Origin: Eledone cirrhosa
Taxonomy: Eukaryota
Assembly (NCBI GenBank): GCA_964016885.1
Contig: OZ024756.1
Location: 24,304,001 to 24,368,000, forward strand
Direction: 5' to 3'
DNA: 64,000 bases
Position 1 is the stretch's first letter. Every line of letters begins with the position of its first letter. Below the pieces are notes generated by a model. The model saw only the letters and a list, made by a program, of their open reading frames with translations. It did no database searches and was not told where the DNA came from. A program made the position numbers and the translations under genes. Positions 14,480 to 53,110 of this stretch are shown piece after piece.

Positions 14480-14866
14480 AAGTCCTACATAATAGGTGGG
14501 TGAGTTGGAATAAGCGGGAGAGTTGGAAAATCAGTAATTTTTCTAGATTGTCTCCGTTGGTTTTTTTTTAAACCAGAATTAGTCGTTTAGTTTATATATT
14601 GAAACCCTAACCCATCCTATTTATTTCATAACGTATGGGGTTTCTAGTAATATACTTTTCTGTCATATATATTGTTTTTTATGTCCTAAGAAAATTAATT
14701 GTTGCAGGTATGCTACCACTTAAAATAAAATTTCACTAGTGATATATTAGCAAAAGATCTGAAAAATGAATAAGTGGAGAGGAGGGATGATTATTCGAGA
14801 CCCAATAATTTATCTATTTCTTTTTCTTTGTTTTGTTTTTTTCCAAACCACCCAAAGTGTGTCAGA
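14480..14866 (+). promoter_or_regulatory. Putative 5' UTR exon and short first intron (14708 to 14857/14865) of gene 1
   Basis: A CAG|GTATGC donor at 14707/14708 lies ~150 bp upstream of the acceptor before ATG 14867. The TSS is not determined. Confidence 0.4.
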
Positions 14867-17800
14867 ATGATGACAGAGAGTCACCAGCACCCAGAAGTTC
14901 GATTAATTTCTAGTTTTATTGCTGATACCAAAGATTCTTCTACTCAATCAATTGAACTTGTAACTGAATCTGATAAAAGCATTCACCGTAAGAAACCTGC
15001 AATAATACCCAGAAAACATATGAGAAACAAGGTAAAAGATGGATCTATAATAGTAGAACACCTGCAGCCTTCTGAAAATCAATGTACAGCAAATTCCAGT
15101 AGCATTTATCTTGTGAATTTAGAGACGCAAAATTCACCGATTTTCAAGTCAGGTGATCAAAATTCTTGCTATGGTTCCACAAGAAATTCAGGTGGAATTC
15201 CCAATAAATTTTTGATATCTCATGAAGTAAAAATCAGCCCATATGATGAGAGTAGTTATTGTATATCAAGATCACTGCTGCCATCAAAATGTGAAGAACA
15301 CCTACTACCACTATCACCAGCACCAGCACCAACAACAACAACATCAGCACCACCTCCAGCACCAACATCAACACCAACAACAGCAACACTGCTGCCAGCA
15401 CCATTTGATGAGTTAGATTTTTATACAGAGAGCCCATCCAAGCATGGAAAAAGCAGGCGTAAATGTGATGTTGTGGATGATGTTGGAAACCTTAGACCAG
15501 AGAAAAATACATGTTATTTGTTTGAGGAAAATGACGAAGGTATTGCATCACCATATAACTTGAGTCACTATTACAAAGCTACTGCTGGCTCCAGTGATAA
15601 GAATGTTAAAAAAACTAGAGTCTCTGATTTACACAATAAACATGATAGAATTAAAGATAAACATGACAAGCTTAAAGACAATACAGGCTTTGGTGGGTAT
15701 GATGAACAAGATGCATTAGATAATAATGATGATATTCGTGGCTCATCCAGTGGCTACAATAAGCTAGATGCATATCAGGATAATATGCATGTTCAATCCA
15801 ATGACTTATTAAACAAGCATGATATAGATGTACCAATGGATGATATATATGCTCTGAGTGATGGCTATGGTGATAAACGTAACATATCTACCAGTAATAC
15901 ACGAGGAGATTACAACATGTACCATGAATCTATTACATCACCTGATTATAGATATCCCATCAATGAAGATGGTGATGATAATGTGCTCTCTCCAAATATT
16001 AGCTACACTTTCTATGAAGATTACCACCAAAATACTCTACCTAAAAATAACATGGACGTTGAGTGTGATAACTACAATAGTACCCACAATGCATCTGAAT
16101 ATAATGTACAGCCTCCTCCTGCTGGTTATCATAAACAAGCTTTACCAAAAGATAGCAGACATATTCTGTCTAATAGCCATGAAACACATGGTGTATACAC
16201 AGATAACAGACAAGTACCAAATAACGTCATTCGTGAGGCTGTAGTATCTTCTAGTAATACATATAGCCAGAAGGAAGGCATTGAAAAAAGTATACCTTCA
16301 GATGCCATTCATGTTGTGTATGAGGACTACCATGAAAATGTTGTGCCTAGTGATAATACTCATGCTCTGTATGAAGACTTCATAAAAGATATCCCCCCTG
16401 ACAACTGCTATATTGACTACTATGAGATATTACCTGACACCTACAGTGATGGTCACAGGAACGCTTTATTTTCAGGTGTCACTCCCTCTGACAACTATCC
16501 TAAAAACTCACGTATCTCAAATGAGGAGTACTACAAAAACAGACATGTTACATATGAAGAAGATGGCATACCCACTGATAACACACAGGCTGTTTATGAC
16601 AACTACGACAACTACCCTCCAAATTTTTTACCAGCAGATGACTCATATATTCTATATGACAATTATCCAGATCATGTTGTACCTTCAAACAGAAATCAAA
16701 GGCGTTCTATCAATGGCTACCAAACTATCATACCCCAAGACAATGTACATTCTCTCTATTCAGACACCAAGCCATCATCTGTTAAAGAACCATTGTATTC
16801 CAATAATAACTTGGATTACATATCACCAGAGAGTGCACAGAAGTGGTACATGGATTCACAAAGAGATAAGGTTTCTCCGGTTCATGATCAAACTTCTAAT
16901 GTGGAGACACAAAGAAACGAAATACCTATCTCAGAAAGTCAAGCTTTCCCTGTTGATTGTTCTGAAAATAACAATACACCACAGAAGGTAAGAGGCTACA
17001 CCAGATTACTCAGGTCGTCCCCATCACCTACTTTCACTGAATACAGTCCAAGAGAAAAAGCTGGAGGACTCACAAACCCAGTTTTAACTCACCCTGAAAT
17101 GACCGATATAATCTACGATCCTTTATATGAAAGAGAATCAAGGAATTTTCGGCCAATGAAAATAACAGCTGAACAAGAATATCCAGAGAATTTTCAGTAT
17201 GTGTATGTGACTGATAGTGCTAACCAGATGGACAATGGTGACCACAGGAAAATGAGATCAGTGAATCCTTCAGAATGTTTCATCTACAGAGAGTCTTATG
17301 AGAATGGTGAAGAGATACCTAGTGATGGCTATCAGAATAAATCTAGACATGCATTTGTAGAAGAATTTGATTATAGCTTTAGAGATGTTGTTGACACACA
17401 ACATTCTAGTAATGGTGTTGGGGAAATTATCATACTTCCTAATGACGCTTCAGAAAAAGGTTTCCATGACTACAACCAAGATGAGGAATATGTAGATTAT
17501 TTATTAGCAGTATCACCACTTCCTCCAAGACGCCACAAGGCTGAAATTTCTGATAGACGTCATACAGTGGAATACAGTGCCCACAATGAAGACAACGCAA
17601 TCATTTATGACCCTCTAAATGGGGAAGAAGTTATTGTAGATGATGTCTTCTACATGGTTTCTCCTGAAAATAAACGATCTAGAACTTTACCATCTAAAAA
17701 TAGTTGTGGCAGTCTTTCAGGATACCCTTCTCACATCCACGACAAAGAACACTCCAGAGGGAAACAACAGCCTAAAACAGGTACTGGTCAGAAATCAAGT

Positions 17801-18860
17801 AGTAACCCCTCTACTGATAATGTTCCTGATGTCTTTAACAGTTCCTTTCAAGATAAAAGAAGAAGACCCATTTATTTCGACTTCAGTCAGCAATCTCCAC
17901 TTTATTACGAAGATATTGATGGAAGTAGTTCTCCTCTTTCGTTAAGCTCATCAAAGGTTAATTCCGATTATTATGAAATCTTGTCCCCTCTTGCTGCAAG
18001 TACTCCTGATGGAGTATCAAGGTGCAGTGGAAAATATAACGAAAATACTAAGAAACAGTACAGCAGAAGACACTCAAGTTTAGCAACCGATGAATCTGGG
18101 TTTGTAGATTGTATCAGTATATCTGGTGTTTCTAGTTCTGCTGACTGCCATAGAAACAGTGAAAAACTCTCAATACACTCATCTTCCAACTCTGAAGAAT
18201 ATGAATACAGTAACATAGATGTCTTTCCAGCTTATGTCGATAATTCTGAAAACTATGTGAATAATCCAGCTACTAATGATTTGGGTGAACACACAAAAAA
18301 GAAAAACAGGGTTTCTTTCGGCAGTTCAAAAGAGACAGGATGTGAACACTATGCCAACATTGATGATTTCAATAGCATTCTTCGAATATCAAACAAATAT
18401 AACTATGATGATGACAGCTCCACAAAAGAAACAACATTTTCATATCACTCTGGGAATTCTCCAAAGGATTTTCAAGAAAATCCTAGAAAATCTGCAAGGG
18501 ATTTTAAAGAGAATTCTGTAAGTTCTTCAAGAGATTTTAAAGACAATCCTGTAAAATCTTCAAGAGATTTTAAAAAGGACTCAAACTCTAAAAGGGTCCC
18601 AACACAACAAGAAAATGATTCAAAGGTTGACCTATACATGAATTCAGAAGATGCAGCCAATTATATTAATTCTTTAAGAATAAATCCTGGTGGAGTTTAT
18701 TATGAAACAAAATGTAATTCACCAGCCAAAGGAAATCCCAAGGATATGTCTGCAATAGAAAGAGGTTTTCTGAAATTGTCGGAAGCTTTAGAGAATACTT
18801 TCAGGAAGCCGCCATCTAAAATTACATTTGCATCAGACCGTGCAAAAAGAAAAAACTTCT
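14867..18860 (+). CDS. Giant first coding exon of an uncharacterised ~1,384-aa low-complexity Tyr/Asp/Asn/Ser-rich protein
   Basis: A 4-kb stop-free frame with ordinary coding composition. A polypyrimidine tract (14810-14845) and AG acceptor (14857 or 14865) precede ATG 14867. The frame ends at the canonical donor CT|GTAAGT after 18860 (phase 1). Confidence 0.85.
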
Positions 18861-18994
18861 GTAAGTTTTTTAAATAAATATTTCATGATAAAGAAGTTTA
18901 TGGGAATCAAAACTAGCTGGGTCAGTAATCTCTGATATCATTATCATTATTCATTGGTTGTTTTCCCTGATAGACATTTAAATTTCAATAATGC

Positions 18995-31180: not shown

Positions 31181-32878
31181 TGTTTATTGTATAGCAATAA
31201 ACACTTTCATAAATCGTTTGTTTTTTTTCTTCGTTCTGTTTCATTTTATGTAAAAAAAAAAAAAAGAAATCCCCACGAATTTTATCACCCGTCTTTGTAA
31301 TGTAACCCCCGCGACATTCGTCACCTTTATAGCAAATAAAAGAACCTATTATTATTATTATTATCATTGCTATTATATGAGTGCGTGGTGGTTAATTTAT
31401 AGAATAGATGTCATATCTCTCATGTGATATATTTTTGGAGGGGAGGGCTATTAACGTTTTTGAAAAAAAACAGCTTCAAGAGAAAACAATACATACATAT
31501 AGATATATAAAGAAATCACTCTCTCTATATATAATATTATATAAATATATAAAATATTTTAAGGCTGTTGTTTTGAAATTCAATTTAACCAGAAAGGAAG
31601 TCTAGCAGCAAGCAACCTTTACATTTAGTGCGGGACTTGAAAAAGTAATTATATTTCGTTACTTTCTCTCATTTCCTGTCTCCAGCCAAGCCACAATAAC
31701 AACAATTACAATAATAATAACAATACCAATCTAACGAAAACAAAAAGAACCTCAGGTCTGCTTGCTTCTAGTATTGAAACACGTTCGTACATTGTAACAT
31801 TTATTTTCTAGCTCCCTTTGTCTGCGTGTTTTGTATTTATTAATCATACATGAGAAACACATAACCTTCTCTTAATTATGACGAAACTATTCACCCACCC
31901 CTTTCACTCCATCCATTTCTCTCTCTGATATTTTATATTTTTCTTCTTCAACTACGATGTTGGTATGTCTATATTGTATTTTGTCTCTTTAGATTAACGA
32001 CAATTCTGTAAATATATATAGAAATAAATAAATACACCAACGTAACTAAACATCAGTTCTATATTCATAATTTATGTGTGTACACCCTCCCACTCTAGTT
32101 AAATATCTCTATAGTGCCCATTTTAGATTTAACAACACCACAATTGCGACTGCGTTATGCATTCATACTTACATGTATATATATATATATATGTATATAT
32201 GTATATGTATATTATATGTATATGTATATTATATGTATATGTATATATTATGTATGTGTATATATTATGTATATGTATATATTATGTATATGTATATATT
32301 ATGTATATGTATATATTTTATATATGTATATATTTTATATATGTATATATTATATATATGTATATATTATATATATGTATATATTATATATATGTATATA
32401 TTATATATATGTATATATTATATATATGTATATATTATATATATGTATATATTATATATATGTATATATTATATATATGTATATATTATATATATGTATA
32501 TATTATATATATGTATATTATATATTATGTATATTATATATTATATATATGTATATATTATATATATGTATATTATATATTATATATATGTATATATATT
32601 ATATATATGTATATATATTATATATATGTATATATATTATATATATGTATATATATTATATATATATGTATATATATTATATATATATGTATATATATTA
32701 TATATATATGTATATATATTATATATATATGTATATATATTATATATATATGTATATATATTATTTATATATATGTATATATATTATTTATATATATGTA
32801 TATATATTATTTATATATATGTATATATATTATTTATAAATATGTATATATATTATTTATATATATATATATTATATG

Positions 32879-32909
<31 letters not shown>

Positions 32910-35900
32910 TTATATATATGTATATATATTATATATGTATATATATTATATATTTATATATATGTATATATATTATATATATTATATATTTATATATATG
33001 TATATATATTATATATGTATATATATTATATATTTATATATATGTATATATATTATATATATATTATATATTTATATATATGTATATATATTATATATTT
33101 ATATATATGTATATATATTATATATGTATATATATTATATATATATATATGTATATATATTATATATATATATATGTATATATATTATATATATGTATAT
33201 ATATATGTATATATATTATATATATGTATATATATTATATATATGTATATATATTATATATATGTATATATATTATATATATGTATGTATATTATATATG
33301 TATATATATTATATATATTATATATGTATATATGTATATTATATATGTATGTATATTATATATGTATATATATTATATATATGTATATATATTATATATA
33401 TGTATATATATTATATATATGTATATATATTATATATATGTATATATATTATATATATGTATATATATTATATATATGTATATATATTATATATATGTAT
33501 ATATATTATATATATGTATATATATTTATATATATGTATATATATTATATATATGTATATATATTTATATATATGTATATATATTATATATATTATATAT
33601 GTATATATATTATATATGTATATATATTATATATGTATATTATATATGTATATATGTATATATATTATATATATGTATATATATTATATATGTATATATG
33701 TATATTATATATGTATATATATTATATATATGTATATATATTATATATATGTATATATATTATTTATATATTATATATATATATATATTATATATATGTA
33801 TATATATTATTTATATATATGTATATATATTATATATATGTATATATATTATATATATGTATATATATTATATATATGTATATATATTATATATATGTGT
33901 ATATATTATGTATATATATTATTTATATATATGTATATATATTATATATATGTATATATATTATGTATATGTATATATATTATTTATATATATGTATATA
34001 TTATATATATATATGTATATATATTATTTATATATATGTATATATATTATGTATATGTATATATATTATTTATATATATGTATATATATTATGTATATGT
34101 ATATATATTATGTATATGTATATATATTATTTATATATATGTATATATATTATGTATATGTATATATATTATGTATATGTATATATATTATTTATATATA
34201 TGTATATATATTATTTATATATATGTATATATATTATTTATATATATGTATATATATTATTTATATATATGTATATATATTATTTATATATATGTATATA
34301 TATTATTTATATATATGTATATATATTTATATATATGTATATATATTTATATATATGTATATGTATATATATTATTTATATGTATATGTATATATATTAT
34401 TTATATGTATATGTATATATATTATATATATGTATATGTATATATATTATATATATGTATATATATATATATGTATATGTATATATATTATATATATGTA
34501 TATGTATATATATATATGTATATGTATATATATTATATATATGTATATGTATATATATTATATATATGTATATGTATATATATTATATATATGTATATAT
34601 ATTATATACATATATATGTATATGTATATATATATGTATATGTATATATATGTATATGTATATGTATATATATGTATATGTATATATATTATATATATGT
34701 ATATATATGTATATGTATATATATTATATATATGTATATGTATTATATATATGTATATGTATTATATATATGTATATGTATATATATTATATATATGTAT
34801 ATGTATATATATTATATATATGTATATGTATATATATTATATATATGTATATGTATATATATTATATATATGTATATGTATATATATTATATATATGTAT
34901 ATGTATATATATTATATATATGTATATGTATATATATTATATATATGTATATGTATATATATTATATATATGTATATGTATATATATTATATATATGTAT
35001 ATGTATATATATTATATATATGTATATATATTATATACATATATATGTATATATATTATATACATATATATGTATATATATTATATACATATATGTATAT
35101 ATATTATATACATATATGTATATATATGTATATATATTATATATATATGTATATATATTATATATATATATATGTATATATATGTATATATATTATATAT
35201 ATATATGTATATATTTATATATATATATATGTATATATATATGTAATATATATTTATATATATATGTATATATATTATATATATATATATGTATATATAT
35301 TATATATATATATATGTATATATATTATATATATATATATGTATATATATTATATATATATTTATATATATGTATATATATTATATATATATATATATGT
35401 ATATATATTATATATATATATATTTATATATATATATATGTATATATATTATATATATATATATTATATATATATATATGTATATATATTATATATATAT
35501 ATATTATATATATGTATATATATATATATATGTATATATATTATATATATATATATGTATATATATTATATATATATATATTATATATATATATATGTAT
35601 ATATATTAATATATGTATATATATTATATATATATATATGTATATATATTATATATATGTATATATATTATATGTATATATATTATATATATATATATGT
35701 ATGTATATTATATATATGTATATATATTTATATATATATATGTATATACATTATATATATGTAGTATATTATATATATGTATATTATATATATGTATATT
35801 ATATATTGTATATATATATATGTATATTATAAATTGTATATATATATGTATATTATATATATGTATATATATATATATGTATATATATATATGTATATAT

Positions 35901-36248
35901 ATATATGTATATTATATATATGTTATATATGTATATTATATGTATATTATATGTATATATATGTATATATATGTATATTATATATGATATATATATATAT
36001 ATGTATATATATGATATATATGTATATATATGTATATATGTATAATATATGTATATATATATATATGTATATTATATATATGTATATATATATATGTATA
36101 TATATATATGTATATATATATATGTATATATATATATATGTATATATATATATGTATATATATATATATGTATATATATATATGTATATTATATATATGA
36201 TATATATGTATATTATATGTATATATATGTATATTATATGTATATATG

Positions 36249-36295
<47 letters not shown>

Positions 36296-36398
36296 GTATA
36301 TATATGTATATATGTATATATATGTATATATATATATATATATGTATATATATTATATATGTATATATATGTATACTATATATATATGTATATATATG

Positions 36399-36430
<32 letters not shown>

Positions 36431-36441
36431 GTATATATATG

Positions 36442-36474
<33 letters not shown>

Positions 36475-36500
36475 GTATATATTATATATGTATATATATG

Positions 36501-36535
<35 letters not shown>

Positions 36536-36864
36536 GTATATATATGTATATATATATATATATGTATATATATACTATATGTATATATATGTATATATAT
36601 ATATATGTATATATGTATATATATATATATATGTAATATATATATATATGTATATATGTATTATATATAGTATATATATGTATTATATATATGTATATAT
36701 ATGTATATTATATATATGTATATATATGTATATTATATATATGTATATATGTATTTATGTTATATATATATATATGTATATATATGTATATTATATATAT
36801 GTATATTATGTATAATATATATATTATATATATGTATTATATATGTATATATATGTATATTATA

Positions 36865-36917
<53 letters not shown>

Positions 36918-37137
36918 TATATATATGTATATATATATGTATATATATATGTATATTATATATGTATATATATATGTATATATATATGTATATTATATGT
37001 ATGTATATATAATATATGTATATATATATGTATATTATATGTATGTATATATATATGTACATATATATGTATATTATATACTATGTATATATATATGTAT
37101 ATATATGTATATTATATATATGTAGTATATATATATG

Positions 37138-37168
<31 letters not shown>

Positions 37169-37279
37169 GTATGTATATATGTATATATATGTATATATAT
37201 GTATATATATGTATAATATATATATATATATATGTATATATATATGTATATATATATATATGTATATATAATATATATG

Positions 37280-37326
<47 letters not shown>

Positions 37327-37450
37327 GTATATATATATGTATATATATATATATGTATATATATATGTATGTATATTATATATGTATATATATATATATG
37401 TATATATATATATAGTATATATATATATATATGTATTATATATATATATG

Positions 37451-37481
<31 letters not shown>

Positions 37482-37500
37482 GTAATTATATATATATATG

Positions 37501-37599
<99 letters not shown>

Positions 37600-37623
37600 G
37601 GTATATATATATAGTATTTATAT

Positions 37624-37654
<31 letters not shown>

Positions 37655-37809
37655 GTATATATATAGTATATATATGTATATTATATATATATATATATTA
37701 TATGTATATATATATATTATATGTATAGTATATATATATGTATATATATATATATATATGTATGTATATATATTATGTATATATTTATATATGTATATAT
37801 ATATATATG

Positions 37810-37864
<55 letters not shown>

Positions 37865-37896
37865 TATATATATGTATGTATATATATGTATATATG

Positions 37897-37927
<31 letters not shown>

Positions 37928-38045
37928 GTATATATATATGTATGTATATATATATGTATATATATATATATATATATAGTATATATGTATATATATATAT
38001 ATGTATATATATATATGTATATATATATATGTATATATATATATG

Positions 38046-38078
<33 letters not shown>

Positions 38079-38091
38079 GTATATATATATG

Positions 38092-38138
<47 letters not shown>

Positions 38139-38156
38139 GTATATATATTATATATG

Positions 38157-38187
<31 letters not shown>

Positions 38188-38202
38188 GTATATATATATA
38201 TG

Positions 38203-38250
<48 letters not shown>

Positions 38251-38263
38251 GTATATATATATG

Positions 38264-38294
<31 letters not shown>

Positions 38295-38335
38295 GTATAT
38301 ATATATGTATATATATATTTATGTATATAATATGT

Positions 38336-38369
<34 letters not shown>

Positions 38370-38484
38370 ATATATATATGTATATATATATATATTTATA
38401 TATATATTATATTATATATATAGTATGATATATATTTATTATATTATATATATTTATATATATATATATATGTATATATATTTA

Positions 38485-38516
<32 letters not shown>

Positions 38517-38544
38517 TTTTATATAGATATATATATGTATATAT

Positions 38545-38744
38545 NNNNNNNNNNNNNNNNNNNNNNNNNNNNNNNNNNNNNNNNNNNNNNNNNNNNNNNN
38601 NNNNNNNNNNNNNNNNNNNNNNNNNNNNNNNNNNNNNNNNNNNNNNNNNNNNNNNNNNNNNNNNNNNNNNNNNNNNNNNNNNNNNNNNNNNNNNNNNNNN
38701 NNNNNNNNNNNNNNNNNNNNNNNNNNNNNNNNNNNNNNNNNNNN
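38545..38744. other. Assembly gap (200 N)
   Basis: A run of N; the round size suggests a scaffolding join of unknown true length. Confidence 0.99.
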
Positions 38745-39049
38745 CAAATTCAGAAACGAAATATTATATATATATTATATAAATTATATATATATATATA
38801 TATAAATTATAATATATATAATTATATATTTTATATAAATTATATAATATATATATTATATATATATATTATATATATATATATATTATATATATACTAT
38901 ATATTATATAAATTATATACTATATTATATATATATATTATATATATATATATATAATATATATATTATATATATATATATTATATATATATATATATTA
39001 TTATATATATATTATATATATATATATTATATATATATATATTATATTA

Positions 39050-39143
<94 letters not shown>

Positions 39144-39426
39144 ATTATATATAATATATTATATAATATATATTATATAATATTATATATATTATATATA
39201 TATATAATATATATTATATAATATAATATATTATATATATATTATATAATATATATATATTAAATATAATTATATATATATATTATATATATTATATATA
39301 TATTTATTATATATATTATATATTATATATATTTATATTATATATATATTATACATATATATATATTATATATATATATTATATATATATTATATAATAT
39401 ATATATATATATTATATATATATATA

Positions 39427-39478
<52 letters not shown>

Positions 39479-39828
39479 ATATAATATATTATATATATTA
39501 TATATATATTATATTGATATATATATATATATATATAATATATATATATATAGTATATATATATTATATATATATTTATATATATATTATATATATATTA
39601 TATATATATTATATATATATATATATTATATATATATTATAATATATATATTTATATATATATTATATATATATTATATATTATATTATATATATATATT
39701 ATATATATATATTATATATATATATTATATATATATATTATATATTTATATTATATATATATATTATATATATATATTATATATTTATATAGTATATATA
39801 TATTTATATATATATTTATATATATATT

Positions 39829-39859
<31 letters not shown>

Positions 39860-39993
39860 ATTTATATATATATATATATTATTTATATATATATATTATA
39901 TATATATTTATATATATATATATATTTATATATTATATATATATTTATATATACATATATATTTATATATACATATATATTTATATATATATT

Positions 39994-40045
<52 letters not shown>

Positions 40046-40370
40046 ATATTATATTATATATATATATATATTTATATATATATTATATATTTATATATAT
40101 ATTATATATATTATATATATATTATATATTTATATATATATTATATATTTATATATATATTATATATTTATATATATATTATATATTTATATATATATTA
40201 TATATTTATATATATATTATATATTTATATATATATTATATATTTATATATATATTATATATTTATATATATACATTATATAATATATATATATATTATA
40301 TATATATTTATATTATATATATATATATATATTATATAATATATATATATTATATATATATATTATATAT

Positions 40371-40402
<32 letters not shown>

Positions 40403-40423
40403 AATATATATATTATATATATA

Positions 40424-40464
<41 letters not shown>

Positions 40465-40653
40465 TATTATATATATATAATATATATATATAATATATAT
40501 ATATATAATTATATATATATATTATATATATAATATATATATATTATATATATATATTATATATTATATATATATATTATATATATTATATATATATAAT
40601 ATATATATATATATTATATTATATATATTATATATATATATTATATATATATT

Positions 40654-40695
<42 letters not shown>

Positions 40696-40706
40696 ATTAT
40701 ATATAT

Positions 40707-40739
<33 letters not shown>

Positions 40740-41036
40740 ATATATATATAATATATATATATTTATATTATATATTATATATTATTATATATATATATAT
40801 ATATTATATATATATAATATATATATATATATTATATATATATTATATATATATATTATATATATATTATATATATATAATATATATATATAATAATATA
40901 TATATATATATTATATATATATATTATATATATATTATATTATATATATATATATATATAATATATATTATATATATATAATATATATATATATATAATA
41001 TATATATATATATAATATATATATATATATTATATA

Positions 41037-41079
<43 letters not shown>

Positions 41080-41167
41080 ATATTATATATATATATTATA
41101 TATATATATTATATATATATATTATATATATATATTATATATATATATTATATATATATATTATATA

Positions 41168-41215
<48 letters not shown>

Positions 41216-41300
41216 ATATATATATTATATATATATATTATATATATATATATATATTATTTATATATATTATATATATATATATATTATATATATATAT

Positions 41301-41332
<32 letters not shown>

Positions 41333-41421
41333 ATATATATTATATATATCTATATATATATTATATAATATATATATATTATATATATATATATATATTA
41401 TGTATATATATATATTATATA

Positions 41422-41522
<101 letters not shown>

Positions 41523-41671
41523 ATATATATTATATATATTATATATATATATATTATATATATATATATATATTATATATATATATTATATATATATTAT
41601 ATATATATATATATTATATATATTATATATATATATATATATATTATTTATATATATATATATATATATTA

Positions 41672-41720
<49 letters not shown>

Positions 41721-41750
41721 ATATATTATATATATTATTATATATATTAT

Positions 41751-41826
<76 letters not shown>

Positions 41827-41879
41827 TATATATATATATATATATTATATATATATATATATATTATATATATTATATA

Positions 41880-41923
<44 letters not shown>

Positions 41924-41935
41924 ATATATATATAT

Positions 41936-41968
<33 letters not shown>

Positions 41969-42043
41969 ATATATATTATATATATATTATATATATTATA
42001 TATATATATATATATTATATATATATATATATATTATATATAT

Positions 42044-42074
<31 letters not shown>

Positions 42075-42100
42075 ATATATATATATATATTATATATATA

Positions 42101-42186
<86 letters not shown>

Positions 42187-42447
42187 ATATATTATATATA
42201 TATATTATATATATATATTATATTATATATATATATTATATATATATATATATTATATATATATATATATTATATATTATATATATATTATATATATATA
42301 TATATATTATATATATATATATATTATATATATATATTATATATATATATATATTATATATATATATATATTATATATATATATATATTATATATATATA
42401 TATATATTATATATATTTATATATATATATTATATATATATATATAT

Positions 42448-42479
<32 letters not shown>

Positions 42480-42622
42480 ATATATTATATATATATATAT
42501 ATTATATATATATATATTATATATATATATATATTATATATATATAGTATATTATATATATATATATATTATATATATATATATATTATATATATATATA
42601 TATATTATATATATATATATAT

Positions 42623-42654
<32 letters not shown>

Positions 42655-42889
42655 ATATATTATATATATATATATATATTATATATATATATATATTATA
42701 TATATATTATATATATTATATATATATTATATATATATATATATATTATATATATATATATATTATATATATTATATATATTATATATATATTATATATA
42801 TATATATATATATTATATATATTATATATTATATATATATATATATATTATATATATATATATATTATATATATATATATATTATATAT

Positions 42890-42920
<31 letters not shown>

Positions 42921-43043
42921 ATATATATTATATATATATTATATATATATATATATATATTATATATAATATATATTATATATATATATATATATTATAT
43001 ATATATATTATATATATATTATATATTATATATATATATATAT

Positions 43044-43077
<34 letters not shown>

Positions 43078-43147
43078 ATATTATATATATATATATATAT
43101 ATTATATAATATATATATATATATTATATATATATATATTATATATA

Positions 43148-43193
<46 letters not shown>

Positions 43194-43211
43194 ATATATA
43201 TATATATATAT

Positions 43212-43243
<32 letters not shown>

Positions 43244-43288
43244 ATATATATTATATATATATAATATATTATATATATATATATATAT

Positions 43289-43320
<32 letters not shown>

Positions 43321-43372
43321 ATATTATATATATATATATATTATATATATATATATATATTATATATATATA

Positions 43373-43415
<43 letters not shown>

Positions 43416-43585
43416 ATATTATATATATATATATATTATATATATATATATATATATATTATATTATATATATATTATATATATATATATTATATATATA
43501 TATATATTATATTTATATACTATATATATTATTATATATATATATATTATATTTATAGATATATATATATATATTATATTTATAG

Positions 43586-43621
<36 letters not shown>

Positions 43622-43640
43622 ATATATATTATATTTATAG

Positions 43641-43678
<38 letters not shown>

Positions 43679-43697
43679 ATATATATTATATTTATAG

Positions 43698-43729
<32 letters not shown>

Positions 43730-43868
43730 TATATATATATATATTATATTTATAGATATATATATTATATTTATATATATATATATTATATATTATATAT
43801 ATTATATATTATATATATATATATTAATATATTTCTATATTATATATATATATATATTATATATATAT

Positions 43869-43900
<32 letters not shown>

Positions 43901-43915
43901 ATATTATATATATAT

Positions 43916-43947
<32 letters not shown>

Positions 43948-44113
43948 ATATTATATATATATATTATATATATTATATATATATATATATTATATATATA
44001 TATATATTATATATATATTATATATATATATATTATATATATATATATTATATATATATATTATATTATATATATATTATATATATATTATATATATATA
44101 TATTATATATATC

Positions 44114-44146
<33 letters not shown>

Positions 44147-44158
44147 ATATATATTATA

Positions 44159-44245
<87 letters not shown>

Positions 44246-44268
44246 ATATATTACATATATATATATAT

Positions 44269-44299
<31 letters not shown>

Positions 44300-45450
44300 A
44301 TATATATATATATTATATATATATATATATTATATATATATTATATATATTATATATATATTATATATATATATAATATATTATATATATTATATATATT
44401 ATATATATATTATATATATTATATATATATTATATATATTATTTATATATTATATATATTATATATATTATATATATTATATATATATTATATATATATT
44501 ATATATATTATATATATTATATATATTATATATATTATATATATATTATATATATTATATATTATATTATATATATTATATATATATTATATATATTATA
44601 TATATATTATATATTTATATATATTATATATATTTATATATATTATATATATTTATATATATTATATATATATTATATATTTATATATATTATATATATA
44701 TTATATATATTTTATATATTATATATATTATATATATTATATATATTATATATATTATATATATATTATATATATTATATATATATTATTTATATTATAT
44801 ATATATTATATATATATTATATATATATTATATATATATATATTATATTATATATATATTATATATATATTATATATATATATATTATATATAAATATTA
44901 TATATATAAATATTATATATATAAATATTATATATATATATATTATATATAAATATTATATATATATATATTATATATAAATATTATATATATATATATT
45001 ATATATATATATTATATATATATCATATATATATTATATATATATTATATATATATATTATATATATATATTATATATATATTATATATATATATTATAT
45101 ATATATATTATATATATATTATATATATACATTATATATATTTTATATATATATATCATATATATATTATATAAATATTATATAAATATTATATATATAT
45201 TATATATATTTTATATATATTATATATATTATATATATATATATATATTATATATATTATATATATATTATATATAATATATATATTATATATATATATA
45301 TATAATATATATATTATATATATATATTATATATATTATATATATTATATTATATATATTATATATTATATTATATATATTATATATATTATATTATATA
45401 TATATATTATATATATTATATATATATATTATATTTATATATATATTATA

Positions 45451-46287
45451 TCTATATATATAAACTGTGGTTGTCTGTCTGTCTATCGATTTTTGGCACA
45501 CATCTCCTCTTAGAATCTCTCACGGAATTGCACCGAAATTGCTATACTTGTACATTGAGCCTAGCGAAGACATCGGAAAAAAAATATTTCAATTCACCCA
45601 CCCTATGTGACGAAATCGAATATAATGTATCGATTTTTGAGCGTAAGTTATCAGTTATTTCCCTTTGTTCTGTTTACATTGAGCGTCTTACGTAAAAAAT
45701 TACGCTGGCTTTAACAGTTGTCGAGCCAGCAAAATATTGACCTGCAAAATTCATCAGTTCGAACACTAAGCTTCCGTTTTGCTTCATTTCCATTTAAAAG
45801 CATTTTAAAACAATATTTTTACTTGAAAACAAGTCTATTTAAAGACTACGTAAAACAAGCAAATATTTCGTCGTTAGGCGTGCAGACAGACAGTCGTGCA
45901 GACAGACAGTCGTGCAGAGAGGTGATATAGGCGTGCAGACAGACAGTCGTGCAGAGAGGTGATATAGGCGTGCAGACAGACATAACTGATAATTTGGTTA
46001 CGCTAATGTTTTTCTCTGCGTTGCAGTGTTTACATTTTCGATCTTTGTTAATAAATAACCAGTGCAGTTTCTATCCCCAGCATCCTCTTTTGTTATAACA
46101 TTCGGGTTATCGTTATGTTTTCTTAACTTCATAAGGCATATTGTTGGTTGAGGGAATATTAATCAAAAACACCACATGCAAGTCTGCACAGTAGACACTA
46201 CAGTTTTTAAGCCAAGAAAGAAACTTAAAATTGTAACTTTAACACAGCTACTGAGCGACCCCGAGCAACGCCGGGCTTTACTGCTAG
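45451..46287 (+). mobile_element. Non-autonomous Helitron (~837 bp) inserted in the TA array
   Basis: A|TC 5' end; subterminal hairpin CCCGAGCAACGCCGGG at 46260-46275; CTAG|T 3' end; no TSD; internal GTGCAGACAGACA-based minisatellite at ~45878-45982. Confidence 0.8.
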
Positions 46288-46813
46288 TATATTATATATA
46301 TATATATTATATATATATATTATATTTATATATATATTATATATATTATATATATTATATATATATTATATATATATTATATATATTATATATATATATA
46401 TTATATATATATTATATATATTATATATATATATAATATATATATATTATATATATTATATATATATTATATATATTATATATATATTATATATTATATA
46501 TATTATATATATTATATATATTTTATATATTATATATATTTTATATATATATTATATATATATTATATATATTTTATATATATATTATATATATTATATA
46601 TATATTATATATATATATTATATATATTATATATATATATTATATATATATTATATATATATTATATATATATATTATATATATATTATATATATTATAT
46701 ATATATATTATATATATATTATATATATATATTATATATATATATTATATATATATTATATATATATTATATATATTATATATATATTATATATATATAT
46801 TATATATATATAT

Positions 46814-46847
<34 letters not shown>

Positions 46848-47011
46848 ATTATATATATATATATTATATATATATATTATATATATATTTTATATATATA
46901 TATATATTATATATATATATATTATATATATATATTATATATATATATTATATATATATATATATTATATATATATTATATATATATATTATATATATAT
47001 ATATTATATAT

Positions 47012-47043
<32 letters not shown>

Positions 47044-47911
47044 ATTATATATATATATATATATTATATATATATATATTATATATATATATATTATATA
47101 TATATATATTATATATATATATATATTATATATATTATATATATTATATATATTATATATATATTATATTATATATATTATATATATTATATATATATTA
47201 TATATATAATATATATATATTATATATATATTATATATATTATATATATATTATATATATAATATATATATATTATATACATATTATATATATATATTAT
47301 ATATATATATTATATATATATATATTATATATTATATATATATTATATACATATTATATATATATATATATATTATATATATATATATTATATATATATT
47401 ATATACATATTATATATATATATATATATTATATATATATATTATATACATATTATATATATATATATATATTATATATATATATTATATATTATATATA
47501 TATTATATACATATTATATATATTATATATTATATATTATATATATATATATTATATATTATATATATATTATATACATATTATATATATATATATTATA
47601 TATTATATATATATATATTATATATTATATATATATTATATACATATTATATATATATTATATATATTATATATATATATTATATATATATATATTATAT
47701 ATTATATATATATATATTATATATTATATATATATATATTATATATTATATATATATTATATACATATTATATATATATATATATATTATATATATATAT
47801 TATATATATATATTATATATTATATATATATTATATACATATTATATATATATTATATATATTATATTATATATATTATATATATATATTATATATTATA
47901 TATATATATAT

Positions 47912-47955
<44 letters not shown>

Positions 47956-48120
47956 ATATATTATATATTATATATATATATATTATATATATATATATTA
48001 TATATTATATATTATATATATTATATATATATTATATATATTATATATATATATTATATATATATAATTTCATCTCTACACAAAGGGTTAATAGTTAGAA
48101 ATATTATAATTGTAATACAA

Positions 48121-48528
48121 TCCATGTTGTATAGAATACATCCATGTTGTATAGAATACATCCATGTTGTATAGAATACATCCATGTTGTATAGAATACA
48201 TCCATGTTGTATAGAATACATCCATGTTGTATAGAATACATCCATGTTGTATAGAATACATCCATGTTGTATAGAATACATCCATGTTGTATAGAATACA
48301 TCCATGTTGTATAGAACACATCCATGTTGTATAGAGTACATCCATGTTGTATAGAACGCATCCCTGTTGTATAGGTCGCATCTATGTTTAGTATATGACG
48401 CATCAATGATGTATAGGACGCATCAATGTTCTATAAGTCGCATCAATGTTTAGTATAGGTTGCATCAATATTGTATAGGTCGTATGAATGTTGTATAAGT
48501 CACATGAATGTTGTATAAGTCGCATCAA
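48121..48528. repeat. 20-bp minisatellite (TCCATGTTGTATAGAATACA)n, about 20 units
   Basis: Nine identical units at 48121-48300, then progressively diverging units towards the AFF-like gene. Confidence 0.95.
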
Positions 48529-48540
48529 TTGCAATTAATA

Positions 48541-48575
48541 ATTTTGTTCCTTTCCTTTCTTTACTTTACTTCCAG
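48541..48575 (+). promoter_or_regulatory. 3' splice acceptor of a 5' UTR intron, 21 nt upstream of the AFF-like ATG
   Basis: Long pyrimidine tract TTTTGTTCCTTTCCTTTCTTTACTTTACTTCCAG| ending at 48575. Confidence 0.6.
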
Positions 48576-48596
48576 TGTATATTTTGTTATAACAAT

Positions 48597-51500
48597 ATGG
48601 CAGATGGGGAAGAATCTACGGAGAAACTTCCAGTCTTTACTTCTCCATATCGGATATTTGAGTTGAATGAAGATCCTATAAACCAGAAGTGTAAAAAAAT
48701 TCTCGGAAATTACGAAATGATGCAAACTTTTATTTCTGATTTCATATACATCTCTTCCCAAGAACGTGCTGAGATTCTGCATAATTTTCCTGAACGTCGC
48801 CTCGATGTATCGTACAGAGGCATAGGACCTTTCACCAAAAAATTGCAACCAGATATTAAAGTAACCCCGATGAGATATCAGAAAAAGAAACATTCACTTA
48901 GTTCTGCAAATATGACTTGTAAATCTGCTACAGCTCAAAGAACTCATGATAAAGGACACGGTGTAAATGTAAGCGATAAAAAACATAACCAGACATTAGA
49001 AAATCCACAAACACCCATTCCGTCTTCTGGAAATAATGATCCGACTTCTTCTAATCCTGTAGAGATACATTTAACACCAGATAACCGAGTTAATCAGGTA
49101 AAGACAGAGTTAACCCCAGTTAACCCAGTTAATCCGATAAAACTAGCAAGTTTGTGCTTAGAAACAGCTCCAAAAGATGACCAAAAACCAATACAATCTT
49201 GTCTTTTGCCAAAATCTGGTCAGGCAACGACCCTTCAAGAGAATGGAACCAGTAAAGATATACATCGTAAACCAGAAAAACATCAGATGAGAGATATTCA
49301 AACACTGGATATTGTTAATACTAGGAAGGATCCATTGAAAGAAAGAAATATAGAAGAAATATTTAGGTTTACGATTATAAAATCTGCTCTTGAGCCTCCT
49401 CTCTCTCCAATTTCATCACCATTAAACGAGTTGAAGAACCCTCCCCAGCCGGATCAAAGTTTGTCTTGCATGACGAAAAACAAACCAACAGTATCTATAC
49501 AGACTATATTTTCAGAAGTCCTCACCAGATTGACGCCTCTCAGTCCGATTCAAAGTCCAAAATTAAAGCCTGCTGAGAATAATAATTTAAAAAGAACTGA
49601 TATAAAAAATGTCGAATTTAATGTACTCCGACCTCATGATAATCAATTTAATATAAAACAATCAGTTGAAAATAAGAAAGAATGGGAAGAAAAGCCTATT
49701 TTGGAACCTCAGTATTCAAAGTCCTCCTCTCTTGTAGAACAGACTTCCAGGATATCCAATAATAAAAACATTTCAATTGTTTCTGTCTGCAAGTCACAAA
49801 CTGCACAAATATACGACAGCGATATTCAATATGGAATGGAAGAAAGCAATAAAAAATCGTCTCCTCGCGAAAGGAATTCTTATAGTGTGAAAATGGTGAC
49901 TAAAATGGAGAACCATCTTTCAAGCTTGAATAATATGACAAACTATTCATCATCGAAAGAAGGTAAAGATGTGTCAGAAGATTTCAACTTGGTAAAAAGT
50001 GACAAATCTGCTAGAAATGAAAAAGTTAATGATTTGAGTGGGTTTAAATATAGTTTCACAATGTCTGGAGAACAAAAGTGTTCCATGGCTGTACATCAAC
50101 TTGTGACGAATGTTAAGACTCTTGATGAAAATGAATATTTAAAACAGACAAAATATACTTGTGTAAATGTATCATCACATGATAAGAAGAAGAGTATTAA
50201 AACCATTGACAAGGAAAGTCCTTCGAAAAAACTGAGTTACAAATATCTATATAAAACCGAACACCAATTGTTTTCGCCACAAATATCTTTTTCAAATAGC
50301 TCTGAAATCTCTCCACTTAAAATTGCTTTTCCAGATGAAAAAATATTGAAAGATAAATTTTCAAAAGATGAACCTCTGAGACAAATTGTTAATACACAGG
50401 AATACGTGGAACCCTGTTTCACTGGTTCTCATCAAAATAACTATAAGCCGTATCTCAATATCAAAAAAGATATCGATATATCGGCTGCTCTCGTTGTTTC
50501 TTCTCCTAAATGCAAAGCGAGTTCATTTGATGTCTTCAATCATAAATGTTCGGTTTTGAGACTTCCTATTTATTCTCTAACACAGAAGGAAAAGAAATTG
50601 CTTATCAAAATTCCAATGGGTTTATTGGATAACAAGCTACAAATGAAAATAAAGTCTAAATTTGCCGGGAATTATAAAAGGAGAATACAACATTCACATT
50701 TTAATAGGAAAAGGGGAAATATATGTGTTATGGTGAAAATAAAAACTAGTTTACTTAGTAAAATACCTTATTGCCATATTTATAAAGATTTTAAAGACTC
50801 AAAGGCATATCCATATTCTATGAGGCACAATGGAATTCACAGTGAAGACTTACTCAACAACAGTTCTCGCCTGTTATTATCTGGAATGCCAGAGTCGTAC
50901 GGTTTCAACGATTCTAGTTCTTATAATGCAAAAGCCAAATATCTAAAAAACCAAGCAAAAATAATGAAACCAGCTGCACAAAGGTTTCTGAATTTGATGT
51001 CTGCTATGTGGTACATTATGTGTGGCCATAGAATGGAAGAGGAACAGCTATCCCATAATACTGTAATAACATTTTTTCAGAGAACCTTTGAGTTTTTTGA
51101 GAAAATTGGCCATTTTGATGATTCCCGAATGGAAACGCTAAAACTTTTACTCCAAACTGTAACAACTCGAAAGATTTACCTGTTAAGAAACTTTCAAATG
51201 AAACAGATTAGAATTGATTTAACTAAAGAATCTAAGTCAGTTTTTGGTAAACATTTCCCATCGCAGCAATTCCACAGTTATGTTCAGTCACATTCCAATG
51301 TAGCAAAGAATGAAAATTGTCCTTCTGTCAATGTTTCTAAAAAATGGCTTACTTTGAATAATGATTATATTGAAATAATGGAATTTCTTGTAAAAAGTAA
51401 CCAGTTTTGGTTGGAATCGCAATATATGATGCATGAAAATAAAGATTTCTTTTCTCTGTTTGAAAATAAATGCCAAACCCTTTCTTTAAATGGACATATT

Positions 51501-51611
51501 CCATTTGTGGTGAATTTTGTCAAAGATTGCTTGGAATTACTTCAACCAAAAGAATTGAAGATTTACACAGAATTCCAAAAACATATTAAATTTGAAAACT
51601 GTTTCATCTAG
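48597..51611 (+). CDS. AF4/FMR2 (AFF/lilliputian)-family protein, divergent, CDS in a single exon (probable retrogene)
   Basis: N-terminal PVFTSPYRI..EDPINQKCKKILGNYEMMQTFI resembles the AFF cyclin T1-binding segment (PLFAEPYK..DxLSSRIQxMLGNYDEMKDFI). IEEIF..PPLSPISSP resembles the ELL-binding segment. VMVKIKTSLLSKIP resembles the AF9/ENL-binding LxVKIxLxLLSRIP. YNAKAKYLKNQA..SAMWYIMCGHRME resembles the start of the C-terminal homology domain (YMQEAKRLKHKAD..AVxSFIECGNALE). The frame is an intact 1004-aa ORF. Confidence 0.85.
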   Translation: MADGEESTEKLPVFTSPYRIFELNEDPINQKCKKILGNYEMMQTFISDFIYISSQERAEILHNFPERRLDVSYRGIGPFTKKLQPDIKVTPMRYQKKKHSLSSANMTCKSATAQRTHDKGHGVNVSDKKHNQTLENPQTPIPSSGNNDPTSSNPVEIHLTPDNRVNQVKTELTPVNPVNPIKLASLCLETAPKDDQKPIQSCLLPKSGQATTLQENGTSKDIHRKPEKHQMRDIQTLDIVNTRKDPLKERNIEEIFRFTIIKSALEPPLSPISSPLNELKNPPQPDQSLSCMTKNKPTVSIQTIFSEVLTRLTPLSPIQSPKLKPAENNNLKRTDIKNVEFNVLRPHDNQFNIKQSVENKKEWEEKPILEPQYSKSSSLVEQTSRISNNKNISIVSVCKSQTAQIYDSDIQYGMEESNKKSSPRERNSYSVKMVTKMENHLSSLNNMTNYSSSKEGKDVSEDFNLVKSDKSARNEKVNDLSGFKYSFTMSGEQKCSMAVHQLVTNVKTLDENEYLKQTKYTCVNVSSHDKKKSIKTIDKESPSKKLSYKYLYKTEHQLFSPQISFSNSSEISPLKIAFPDEKILKDKFSKDEPLRQIVNTQEYVEPCFTGSHQNNYKPYLNIKKDIDISAALVVSSPKCKASSFDVFNHKCSVLRLPIYSLTQKEKKLLIKIPMGLLDNKLQMKIKSKFAGNYKRRIQHSHFNRKRGNICVMVKIKTSLLSKIPYCHIYKDFKDSKAYPYSMRHNGIHSEDLLNNSSRLLLSGMPESYGFNDSSSYNAKAKYLKNQAKIMKPAAQRFLNLMSAMWYIMCGHRMEEEQLSHNTVITFFQRTFEFFEKIGHFDDSRMETLKLLLQTVTTRKIYLLRNFQMKQIRIDLTKESKSVFGKHFPSQQFHSYVQSHSNVAKNENCPSVNVSKKWLTLNNDYIEIMEFLVKSNQFWLESQYMMHENKDFFSLFENKCQTLSLNGHIPFVVNFVKDCLELLQPKELKIYTEFQKHIKFENCFI

Positions 51612-52314
51612 TGGTCGTAGTCCCTTGAGAGACTCAACTGTGTAGCTAGAATTTATGTCACACAGACTAAAAATGCTCTCCCTTCCAAAATTATAGTGCC
51701 GTTCAGAACAGAGCACACCCAATGAGCCTTCTCCTTTTCCCTGTTTCATTGCGGTACCTTTATTTTATTTCTACTAATTATAAAAAGAATTGCCGACCTT
51801 GTGTCCAAATAAGAATTCATTGATTTGGAACTCATGAAATTCTATACTATCTAAAAGACATTCGACTAGATAGAACGTAGTTTTGCTCTTTAAAAATTAA
51901 TAAGTATTTATTTAATATATTATAATATATTATAATACATTAAGCAATATATTATATAATATATTACTCAAATATAATTATTATAACGAAATACATTCAA
52001 GAATTACATGAAAGGGATTTTTTCCAAATCAGCATAAGAGGAATTTGACTAAAATATCCCCCCACTTTAAGATAGAAATATTATGGTTCATAGCAAAACA
52101 TTTTCTTTTTTGTTTTATATTCTTTTTTAAATATTTATTTATTTACATTTTTTCAAATACAGGGAAAATATCTTGAATTTTTGTGATAACACACACACTT
52201 ACACACACACATACATACACACACATCCATATATATTAACACACATACACACACTGACCCATCCACCCATATACATATATATATTTATATATATATATAT
52301 ATATATATATAGTA

Positions 52315-52490
52315 GTAGTAGTAGTTCCACAACAGTTAGTTCACCATACCGAGAACAAATGTTTCACCTTATTCGGATCATCAGTTCTCGGTATGGTGTA
52401 CTAACTGTTGTGGAACTACTTCTACCAAACTAATCCCATGGACTGAGTTCTCTACTATTATGGATATAACCCTCCAGTGTTCTACTATTA
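52315..52490. mobile_element. Second family B Penelope-like remnant (inverted arms, minus-strand hammerhead-like motif at 52349-52391)
   Basis: Shares AACAGTTAGTTCAC..ACCGAGAACA..TGTTTCACCTTAT and the TCCCATGGACTGAGT tail with the 13.5-kb copy; flanked by (TA)n. Confidence 0.6.
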
Positions 52491-52501
52491 TATATATATT
52501 T

Positions 52502-52866
52502 CTAGGGCGGGTAAAATTCCTGAGATCTATGGACGAGTTCTCTCCAGCGGTCTCTGTCCCTCATTATCGCTGCCATCTCCTGCGTCTCCAACAGACCAGT
52601 GTCTGTCCTTAGGGTATCAACATACGTTAACCTTGGTCTTCCTCTTCCAGTGTGTCCATGTAGGAGCTCCCACAGGAGCACTGAGTGCAATGTCAACTCT
52701 GGATATCGGTGAGCATGTCCAGCTAACCTCAGTCTCCTTTGTGTCACTTTTGAGCTGACTTTTGGGAGGCTCCCATACAGCTCTGAGTTTTTCATCCTCA
52801 GTGTATACTGATTAATGTTCAGAGCCAACCTCAGCATTTTCGTGTAGCATCCATCCACCATCTGAG
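52502..52866 (-). mobile_element. RTE/RTEX-like LINE 3' fragment (second family), embedded in (TA)n
   Basis: DGCYTKMLRLALNI..LYGSLPKVS..QRRLRLAGHAHR..VLLWE..GRGRPRLTYVDTLRTDTG..MRDRDRWR. Confidence 0.85.
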
Positions 52867-52867
52867 G

Positions 52868-52906
<39 letters not shown>

Positions 52907-52964
52907 TAGAAGTATGAGTAGAAAGCGGTGAGTAGAGTTAAAAAATTGAAAGTTACAGCAAAGT

Positions 52965-53005
<41 letters not shown>

Positions 53006-53110
53006 TATATATATGTGTGTGTGTGTACGTAAAAGGTAAACAGAAATAACAACACAATCGGTACAGTATATGGAAGGGATATATTAGGTTAACGCTTGAT
53101 ATAGCAGGAA

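Follow-up and report, generated by a model that had tools for sequence, protein, structure and literature searches.

The window analysed is a stretch of 64,000 nucleotides (nt) of the octopod Eledone cirrhosa (assembly GCA_964016885.1, contig OZ024756.1, positions 24,304,001 to 24,368,000, forward strand); positions below are those of the window unless a contig is named. It contains, at 48597-51611 (+), the single-exon coding sequence (CDS) of a divergent AFF/lilliputian (lilli) paralogue of 1004 amino acids (aa), 61% identical over its full length to O. vulgaris CAI9737402.1. We consider it probable that this is an intact gene under purifying selection, which pre-dates the split of the octopods from other coleoids and encodes a scaffold for an alternative form of the super elongation complex (SEC), likely in a restricted tissue. 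Invertebrates are commonly credited with a single AFF scaffold. The literature covered (papers outside subscription and bioRxiv preprints without their supplements, the results of loose searches being viewed in part) contained no paper on a cephalopod AFF paralogue and none on CAI9737402.1.

AFF family membership and domain organisation

The product of the open reading frame (ORF) is a member of the AFF/lilli family. Its C-terminal homology (dimerisation) domain (CHD; aa 768-1004, 50898-51608, +) scores 30.3 bits with Pfam AFF4_CHD (PF18876) in the 1004-aa protein, above the cut-off of 24 (E 3.8e-7). The AlphaFold2 model of this domain, made from an 18-row alignment (pLDDT 87, pTM 0.82), shows a TPR-like helical fold, and Foldseek retrieves with it 6R80, 6K7P and 6KN5, all of them AFF4 CHD structures, as the only ones with E<=0.001 among the 500 matches listed (next E 0.12). 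The predicted domain superposes on these structures with TM 0.70-0.77 at 16% identity. The AFF4 dimer-core residues, which include F1014 and Y1096 (PMC7026398), map to Y861 (F1014), Y924 (Y1096), I925, L931 and V932 when the numbering is transferred by alignment. At the other end of the protein, aa 9-48 align with the peptide of AFF4 in PDB 4OR5/4IMY (E 0.017-0.024), and the four PDB matches obtained are all AFF4. This region contains a predicted cyclin T/P-TEFb-binding-like segment (aa 12-46, 48630-48734, +), defined by alignment to the AFF4 peptide; out of the 14 AFF4 residues listed as contacting cyclin T (PMC8022399), seven positions are identical, five are conservative and two are other. 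The preliminary description of this DNA, made from its letters, had proposed a divergent AF4/FMR2 protein with AFF motifs at both ends, and both proposals agree with these matches. The nearest protein-atlas clusters of the O. vulgaris orthologue are also AFF/lilli (score 0.90). The Pfam evidence is confined to AFF4_CHD: AF-4 (PF05110) reaches 19.4 bits in the divergent protein, below its cut-off of 26.9, and AF4_int shows no significant match in the 1004-aa protein. Since canonical octopus lilli has no match to AF-4 or AF4_int either, the AF-4 model is non-discriminating in cephalopods.

Between both ends the protein shows AF9/ENL-binding-like and ELL-binding-like motifs, each in two copies. 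The strong AF9/ENL copy (aa 711-724, 50727-50768, +) scores 12.5 bits with a profile built from eight canonical AF9-type motifs, the best of 300 shuffles reaching 5.5; relative to the AHD-binding consensus of AF9/ENL, LxVxIxLxxV/L, it has Thr at the fourth consensus position, as octopus lilli does. The weak copy (aa 668-677, 50598-50627, +) is recognised by a relaxed pattern and is unscored by the profile. The first ELL-type copy (aa 252-275, 49350-49421, +) is degenerate and was recognised by eye and with a post-hoc pattern, and the second one (aa 301-321, 49497-49559, +) is placed by alignment and pattern in the register that copy 2 has in octopus lilli; the ELL contact pattern was taken from PMC8022399. 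Since the motif patterns were written after viewing the motifs, their P-values are inflated and only the profile test is used as evidence. PDB searches gave zero matches with the ELL-motif region and none with the AF9/ENL motif. Downstream of the cyclin T-like segment, alignment delimits a motif which is conserved in the divergent clade and not aligned in lilli (aa 45-90, 48729-48866, +) and is likely an added binding surface. Over aa 1-90 the O. vulgaris copy is 80% identical and the divergent protein P0005 is 41% identical; over aa 91-245 the figures are 43% and 20%, respectively.

Gene structure and selection

The ORF extends from the ATG at 48597 to the TAG at 51609-51611 with zero internal stops, and the chance probability of an equally long stop-free frame at the observed composition is about 1e-34.5. 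Upstream of it, a 30-nt pyrimidine tract and a CAG at 48573-48575 form a putative 3' splice acceptor (48545-48575, +), 21 nt 5' of the ATG; this CAG contains the sole AG within 48521-48597, and the contig of a related species has TAG at the same site, so that YAG is kept. The uninterrupted frame of about 3 kb (1004 codons) and the acceptor just 5' of the ATG, both announced in the preliminary description, are therefore present. If used, the acceptor would join the CDS to an upstream exon, untranslated (UTR) or coding; since it is in frame with the ATG, a short coding exon may precede it. The start Met is common to all full-length orthologues in the alignment.

The intronless CDS is seen in the DNA of two species, this assembly and the related-species contig, which spans 48528-51896 unbroken and differs in 271 letters. 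Three other sequencing runs gave thin coverage of DNA type. Coding indels among the differences listed total 18, 15 and 12 nt, so that the frame is kept. Codons 781-998 of the CHD (218 codons) contain 18 synonymous and 17 non-synonymous differences (the 35 listed out of 42), which gives a ratio of non-synonymous to synonymous rates (dN/dS) of 0.21 (P 2.6e-5 vs neutrality); the CHD is the most constrained part of the protein. The gene is thus under selection yet fast-evolving outside the CHD, in line with the intact gene of the preliminary description. A decaying copy or an unexpressed pseudogene would be in keeping with the lack of a copy among the O. sinensis and O. bimaculoides proteins of the collection searched, where two matches and a cluster of one member were obtained, and with the split or shortened form of some relatives (P0006/P0010, on equal-length contigs, and P0007). 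We give this hardly any credence: the dN/dS of the CHD and the frame-keeping indels already largely refute it, and full-length orthologues exist at 57-61% and about 27% identity.

Relatives and age of the duplication

Of 6360 candidates, the full-length search retains two proteins, O. vulgaris CAI9737402.1 (61%) and a Logan protein (57%). The full-length orthologues agree in where they start and end. When 1.84 billion representatives are searched with a profile, eight matches are obtained, including a second divergent group (P0005-P0008 and P0010) and canonical AFFs, and a separate search adds P0029 to the second divergent group. Trees were made from the CHD (15 rows) and from 470 well-filled columns (12 rows), leaving out the short fragments P0008, P0009 and P0010 and near-duplicate cluster members. 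In both trees the divergent clade (100/100) stands beside the lilli clade, and each clade contains octopods and a second group; the divergent clade is sister to the coleoid lilli clade. A tree holding the octopod genes together (an octopod-only duplication) is rejected by the approximately unbiased (AU) test (p 3e-67), so the narrow lineage-specificity suggested at first has to be abandoned. From the shape of the tree, the second group is likely squid or cuttlefish, and the duplication likely predates the split of octopods from other coleoids. This split is placed at 285-340 million years (PMC10925132), and the duplication would be older than that if the second group is squid and cuttlefish.

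AF9-type motifs are two in octopus lilli and in five of the eight divergent proteins (the other three are short or partial), and one in abalone and fish. The divergent clade and coleoid lilli have in common the doubling of AF9-type and putative ELL-type motifs, of which abalone has one each; this speaks for an origin of the clade from coleoid lilli. P0018 and P0021 are shortened lilli-type proteins of the non-octopod group, and P0018 is duplicated internally, with part of a CHD in the middle of the protein, which suggests further intronless lilli copies.

Search for canonical lilli in the assembly

O. vulgaris carries both genes: CAI9737402.1 (divergent) and CAI9737826.1 (lilli). The second paralogue that had been proposed is thus confirmed for this species, while canonical lilli was not found in the E. 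cirrhosa assembly: two Pfam families (PF18876 and PF05110), five protein queries from four regions (P0009, three Octopus lilli stretches and P0027) and one exact pattern gave no high-identity match to it. In these searches a lilli-stretch query scored the best 135 of 2703 candidates and the P0027 query the best 111 of 130. The P0027 query also missed the N-terminus of the divergent paralogue itself, and one Octopus lilli stretch retrieved this paralogue at 24% identity. Short exons are detectable, because the control PF07303 retrieved two exons of ELL, 56 and 47 codons long, from contig C5. Here the ELL C-domain (C5:103922631-103924183, two exons) is the sole one found; it is rather diverged from human ELL2 and could be canonical or a paralogue. 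Two kinds of candidates were discarded: a second PF18876 match on contig C12, which is spurious (internal stops, a LINE-like character and no exon of an AFF gene within the surrounding 200 kb), and the low-identity matches of the lilli queries, which are low-complexity noise, showing 27-49% identity where near-identity is expected (five loci of the P0009 query were checked and the others judged from tables). The divergent gene is therefore formally the only AFF gene that these searches find in this assembly, a case that the preliminary description had set against a second paralogue; it may reflect an assembly gap, which is likelier than a true loss of lilli.

Origin of the intronless copy

The preliminary description regarded the gene as a retrocopy that had gained a 5' UTR exon. 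The abalone P0017, a genomic ORF call, begins and ends in apparent intron letters, and one break lies inside the matching P-TEFb segment; since this abalone intron falls inside a segment that is continuous in the octopus gene, introns were lost along the lineage, and an RNA step somewhere in the ancestry of the gene is suggested by the intron positions read from P0017. A direct retrocopy of a multi-exon lilli agrees with these abalone introns, with the intronless CDS preceded by an acceptor 21 nt 5' of the ATG, with the N-terminal truncation relative to lilli and with a layout like that of the amphioxus SYCP1 retrogene (PMC5803294). We rate it as the weaker of two serious candidates, the other one, duplication at the DNA level of a coleoid lilli that was already without introns, being modestly favoured. 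Both O. vulgaris genes are on records of 73,562,531 bases, likely one chromosome as judged from the equal record length, and a random insertion there has a probability of about 3%; a local DNA duplication consequently fits better than retro-insertion. The canonical-type proteins P0018 (ENA) and P0021 (JGI/IMG) are whole single calls, a hint of intronless lilli-type genes, even if they could be transcript contigs, and one and the same lilli protein stands under three accessions of O. bimaculoides, a weak hint of an intronless lilli duplicated as DNA. The single-exon choline dehydrogenase-like gene 106 kb away indicates that intronless genes are not rare here. Neither a poly-A tail nor AATAAA appears within 490 nt of the stop, which is uninformative at such age, and no target-site duplication or poly-A remnant was seen, none being expected after hundreds of millions of years. 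Intron loss in place has little probability.

Proposed function and alternative explanations

As an SEC scaffold, the protein would dock on cyclin T through aa 12-46, add a strand to AF9/ENL's AHD domain through aa 711-724 and probably bind the ELL C-terminal domain through aa 301-321, as their motifs suggest. The CHD, where Y861 and Y924 are kept, is predicted to dimerise with itself or with lilli, and the variant complex would free RNA polymerase II from pausing. The protein has neither the Ser/Pro-rich CHD loop nor the Ser/acidic tracts and the leader of lilli, and may thereby escape part of the regulation of lilli. By analogy with testis-restricted paralogues and from its fast evolution, restricted expression is slightly favoured, and expression in the male germline is possible, with a little less than even chances. 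An old second AFF clade of cephalopods, which arose independently of the expansion to AFF1-4 in vertebrates, would be a natural experiment. The P-TEFb, AF9/ENL and dimer modules are kept in it, while the Ser/Pro loop of the CHD and half of the disordered scaffold are gone, and it allows a direct test of the role of this loop and of a scaffold swap making a tissue-specific elongation complex.

Several observations weigh against an old, selected, working scaffold. The first 100 codons show a dN/dS of 0.62 (P 0.15), indistinguishable from neutral, from the 40 rows listed out of 361, taken as complete for these codons; cyclin-contact positions such as Y18 are changed with respect to the related species; Leu replaces H1090 of the AFF4 dimer face; and a profile from eight canonical ELL (ELLBow) motifs detects none in the divergent protein. 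The date of the duplication is read from tree shape, long branches meet in both trees, and a duplication that precedes the split from gastropods (lilli grouping with abalone) is rejected weakly (AU p 0.029). Finally, the coexistence of both paralogues is established for O. vulgaris and not for E. cirrhosa. The undetected ELL motifs could also mean that the protein is a decoy or modulator, which binds P-TEFb and AF9/ENL, pairs with lilli via the CHD and dampens or redirects the canonical complex, its ELL sites being weak and its Ser/Pro loop absent. The loss of this loop and the CHD as the most constrained part are in keeping with such a role, as is the preference of human AFF proteins for heterodimers over homodimers (PMC8022399). 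However, the ELL motif region is 65% identical to the O. vulgaris copy, vs 43% and 55% in the flanks, copy 2 retains the four hydrophobic helix positions, and all four modules are retained in order, which fits a working scaffold; we regard a decoy as rather improbable.

An unlikely possibility, less so than the decoy, is that coleoids kept a second, loop-less AFF scaffold for about 300 million years and that canonical lilli was then lost in this octopod, the divergent paralogue alone running the complex as its sole scaffold and being expressed everywhere; if true, this would be one of the rare cases in which a core transcription factor is replaced. All lilli queries were without a high-identity match while the ELL control and the paralogue were retrieved, and the main docking sites are all apparently present in the divergent protein. 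Against this, the assembly has gaps and may be incomplete, two queries scored only part of their candidates, and the contig of the gene (C17) has 44.7 Mb vs 73.6 Mb of the O. vulgaris record holding both genes. For a scaffold that is essential and the only one, the constraint is loose, as the N-terminal dN/dS indicates, the branch of the E. cirrhosa gene in the CHD tree (0.12) is not much shorter than that of orthologues which keep lilli (0.15), and three Octopus species show strong conservation of lilli. An alternative scaffold of likely restricted expression, as proposed above, is the reading that we retain.

Neighbourhood of the gene

Directly 5' of the acceptor, repeat analysis shows a 20-bp minisatellite of about 20 copies (48114-48529), likely intronic. 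It follows about 16 kb of near-pure TA-rich microsatellite (32000-48070) with a 200-N assembly gap at 38545. The sole island of complex sequence in the TA-repeat tract 38700-48100 is at 45440-46290, a candidate for a promoter or a 5' exon, or else what is left of a transposon; no second copy of it is present in the 489 kb of sequence compared. Just 3' of the gene, 52300-53083 contains a high-copy repeat and the remnant of a long interspersed nuclear element (LINE) reverse transcriptase (-).

The window also contains a long frame at 14774-18877 (+), of 1367 codons from stop to stop and about 1336 aa from the ATG, with a pyrimidine tract near the start. Its product is Tyr/Asp/Ser-rich, shows repeated YxN motifs near the C-terminus and no Pfam match. 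The frame has the appearance of an extended terminal exon, or of a gene without introns, of the phosphotyrosine docking type. A C2H2 zinc-finger array gene of about 480 aa (-), from 63907 of the window to C17:24369364, lies at the right edge of the window. Outside the window, the same contig shows a 2321-codon Gln/Asn-rich open frame without Pfam match (C17:24286875-24293837, +), a single-frame Forkhead gene (C17:24212671-24214224, +; Pfam 113.7 bits), which we take to be FoxQ2-like, and a GMC oxidoreductase of the choline dehydrogenase-like kind, complete within a single exon (C17:24461566-24463383, +). In animals the choline dehydrogenase gene is normally multi-exon, and the single-exon gene is possibly a retrogene replacement. 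Z-linkage of the locus, considered for its Fox and zinc-finger neighbours, is not claimed: a crude LINE count is equal on C17 and C12. The Z of O. vulgaris is chr16 (10.1101/2024.12.09.627507). A term search of the Coffing supplement text found neither AFF nor CHDH.

Comparison with known systems

Human AFF4 and AFF1 and Drosophila lilliputian show the same module order: P-TEFb, ELL, AF9/ENL site and CHD (PMC7026398, PMC8022399). With respect to them, the octopus gene has a single coding exon, no Pfam AF-4 or AF4_int match, doubled ELL-like and AF9-like motifs, the extra motif at aa 45-90 and a CHD loop of 32 aa. According to the alignment comparison, this shortened loop (aa 881-912, 51237-51332, +) has no SP/TP site; in three divergent proteins the loop has 32-35 aa and zero SP/TP, whereas it has 106 aa and six sites in O. 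vulgaris lilli, 72 and six in abalone, and 55 and five in fish AFF2. CDK9 is said to phosphorylate the CHD loop of human AFF4, in work attributed to Chen and Cramer in 2019. In the human crystal this loop is disordered (PMC7026398).

A further close system is octopus lilli itself (CAI9737826.1, O. sinensis XP_029647915.1 and O. bimaculoides XP_014770443.1), which forms the sister clade. Both proteins share the doubled AF9-type and putative ELL-type motifs and a short linker between CHD helices, yet the divergent one has 1004 aa vs about 1915 aa, with 16% identity in the alignment, 11% Ser vs 19% in O. vulgaris lilli and a pI of 9.3 vs 6.1. It shows neither the N-terminal leader of about 25 aa nor the long Ser/acidic tracts, and its CHD path from the common node is about 2.4 times longer (1.23 vs 0.52). 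The divergent clade as a whole has half of lilli's length and no such leader, and it is poorer in Ser and more basic than the O. vulgaris lilli. The direct orthologue, O. vulgaris CAI9737402.1 (990 aa, 61%; UniRef A0AA36BPN1), has only an automatic annotation as hypothetical protein.

Among paralogues of general transcription factors, mammalian ELL3 and the Drosophila tTAFs are testis-restricted. BRDT is a further testis-restricted transcription paralogue (PMC11908497). The octopus gene resembles the three of them as a fast-evolving paralogue of a general transcription factor, but none of them is an SEC scaffold. The amphioxus SYCP1 retrogene also shows one coding exon of 3 kb and a spliced 5' UTR, and its parent was not found in the genome (PMC5803294); in the octopus case the parent, lilli, persists in at least O. 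vulgaris.

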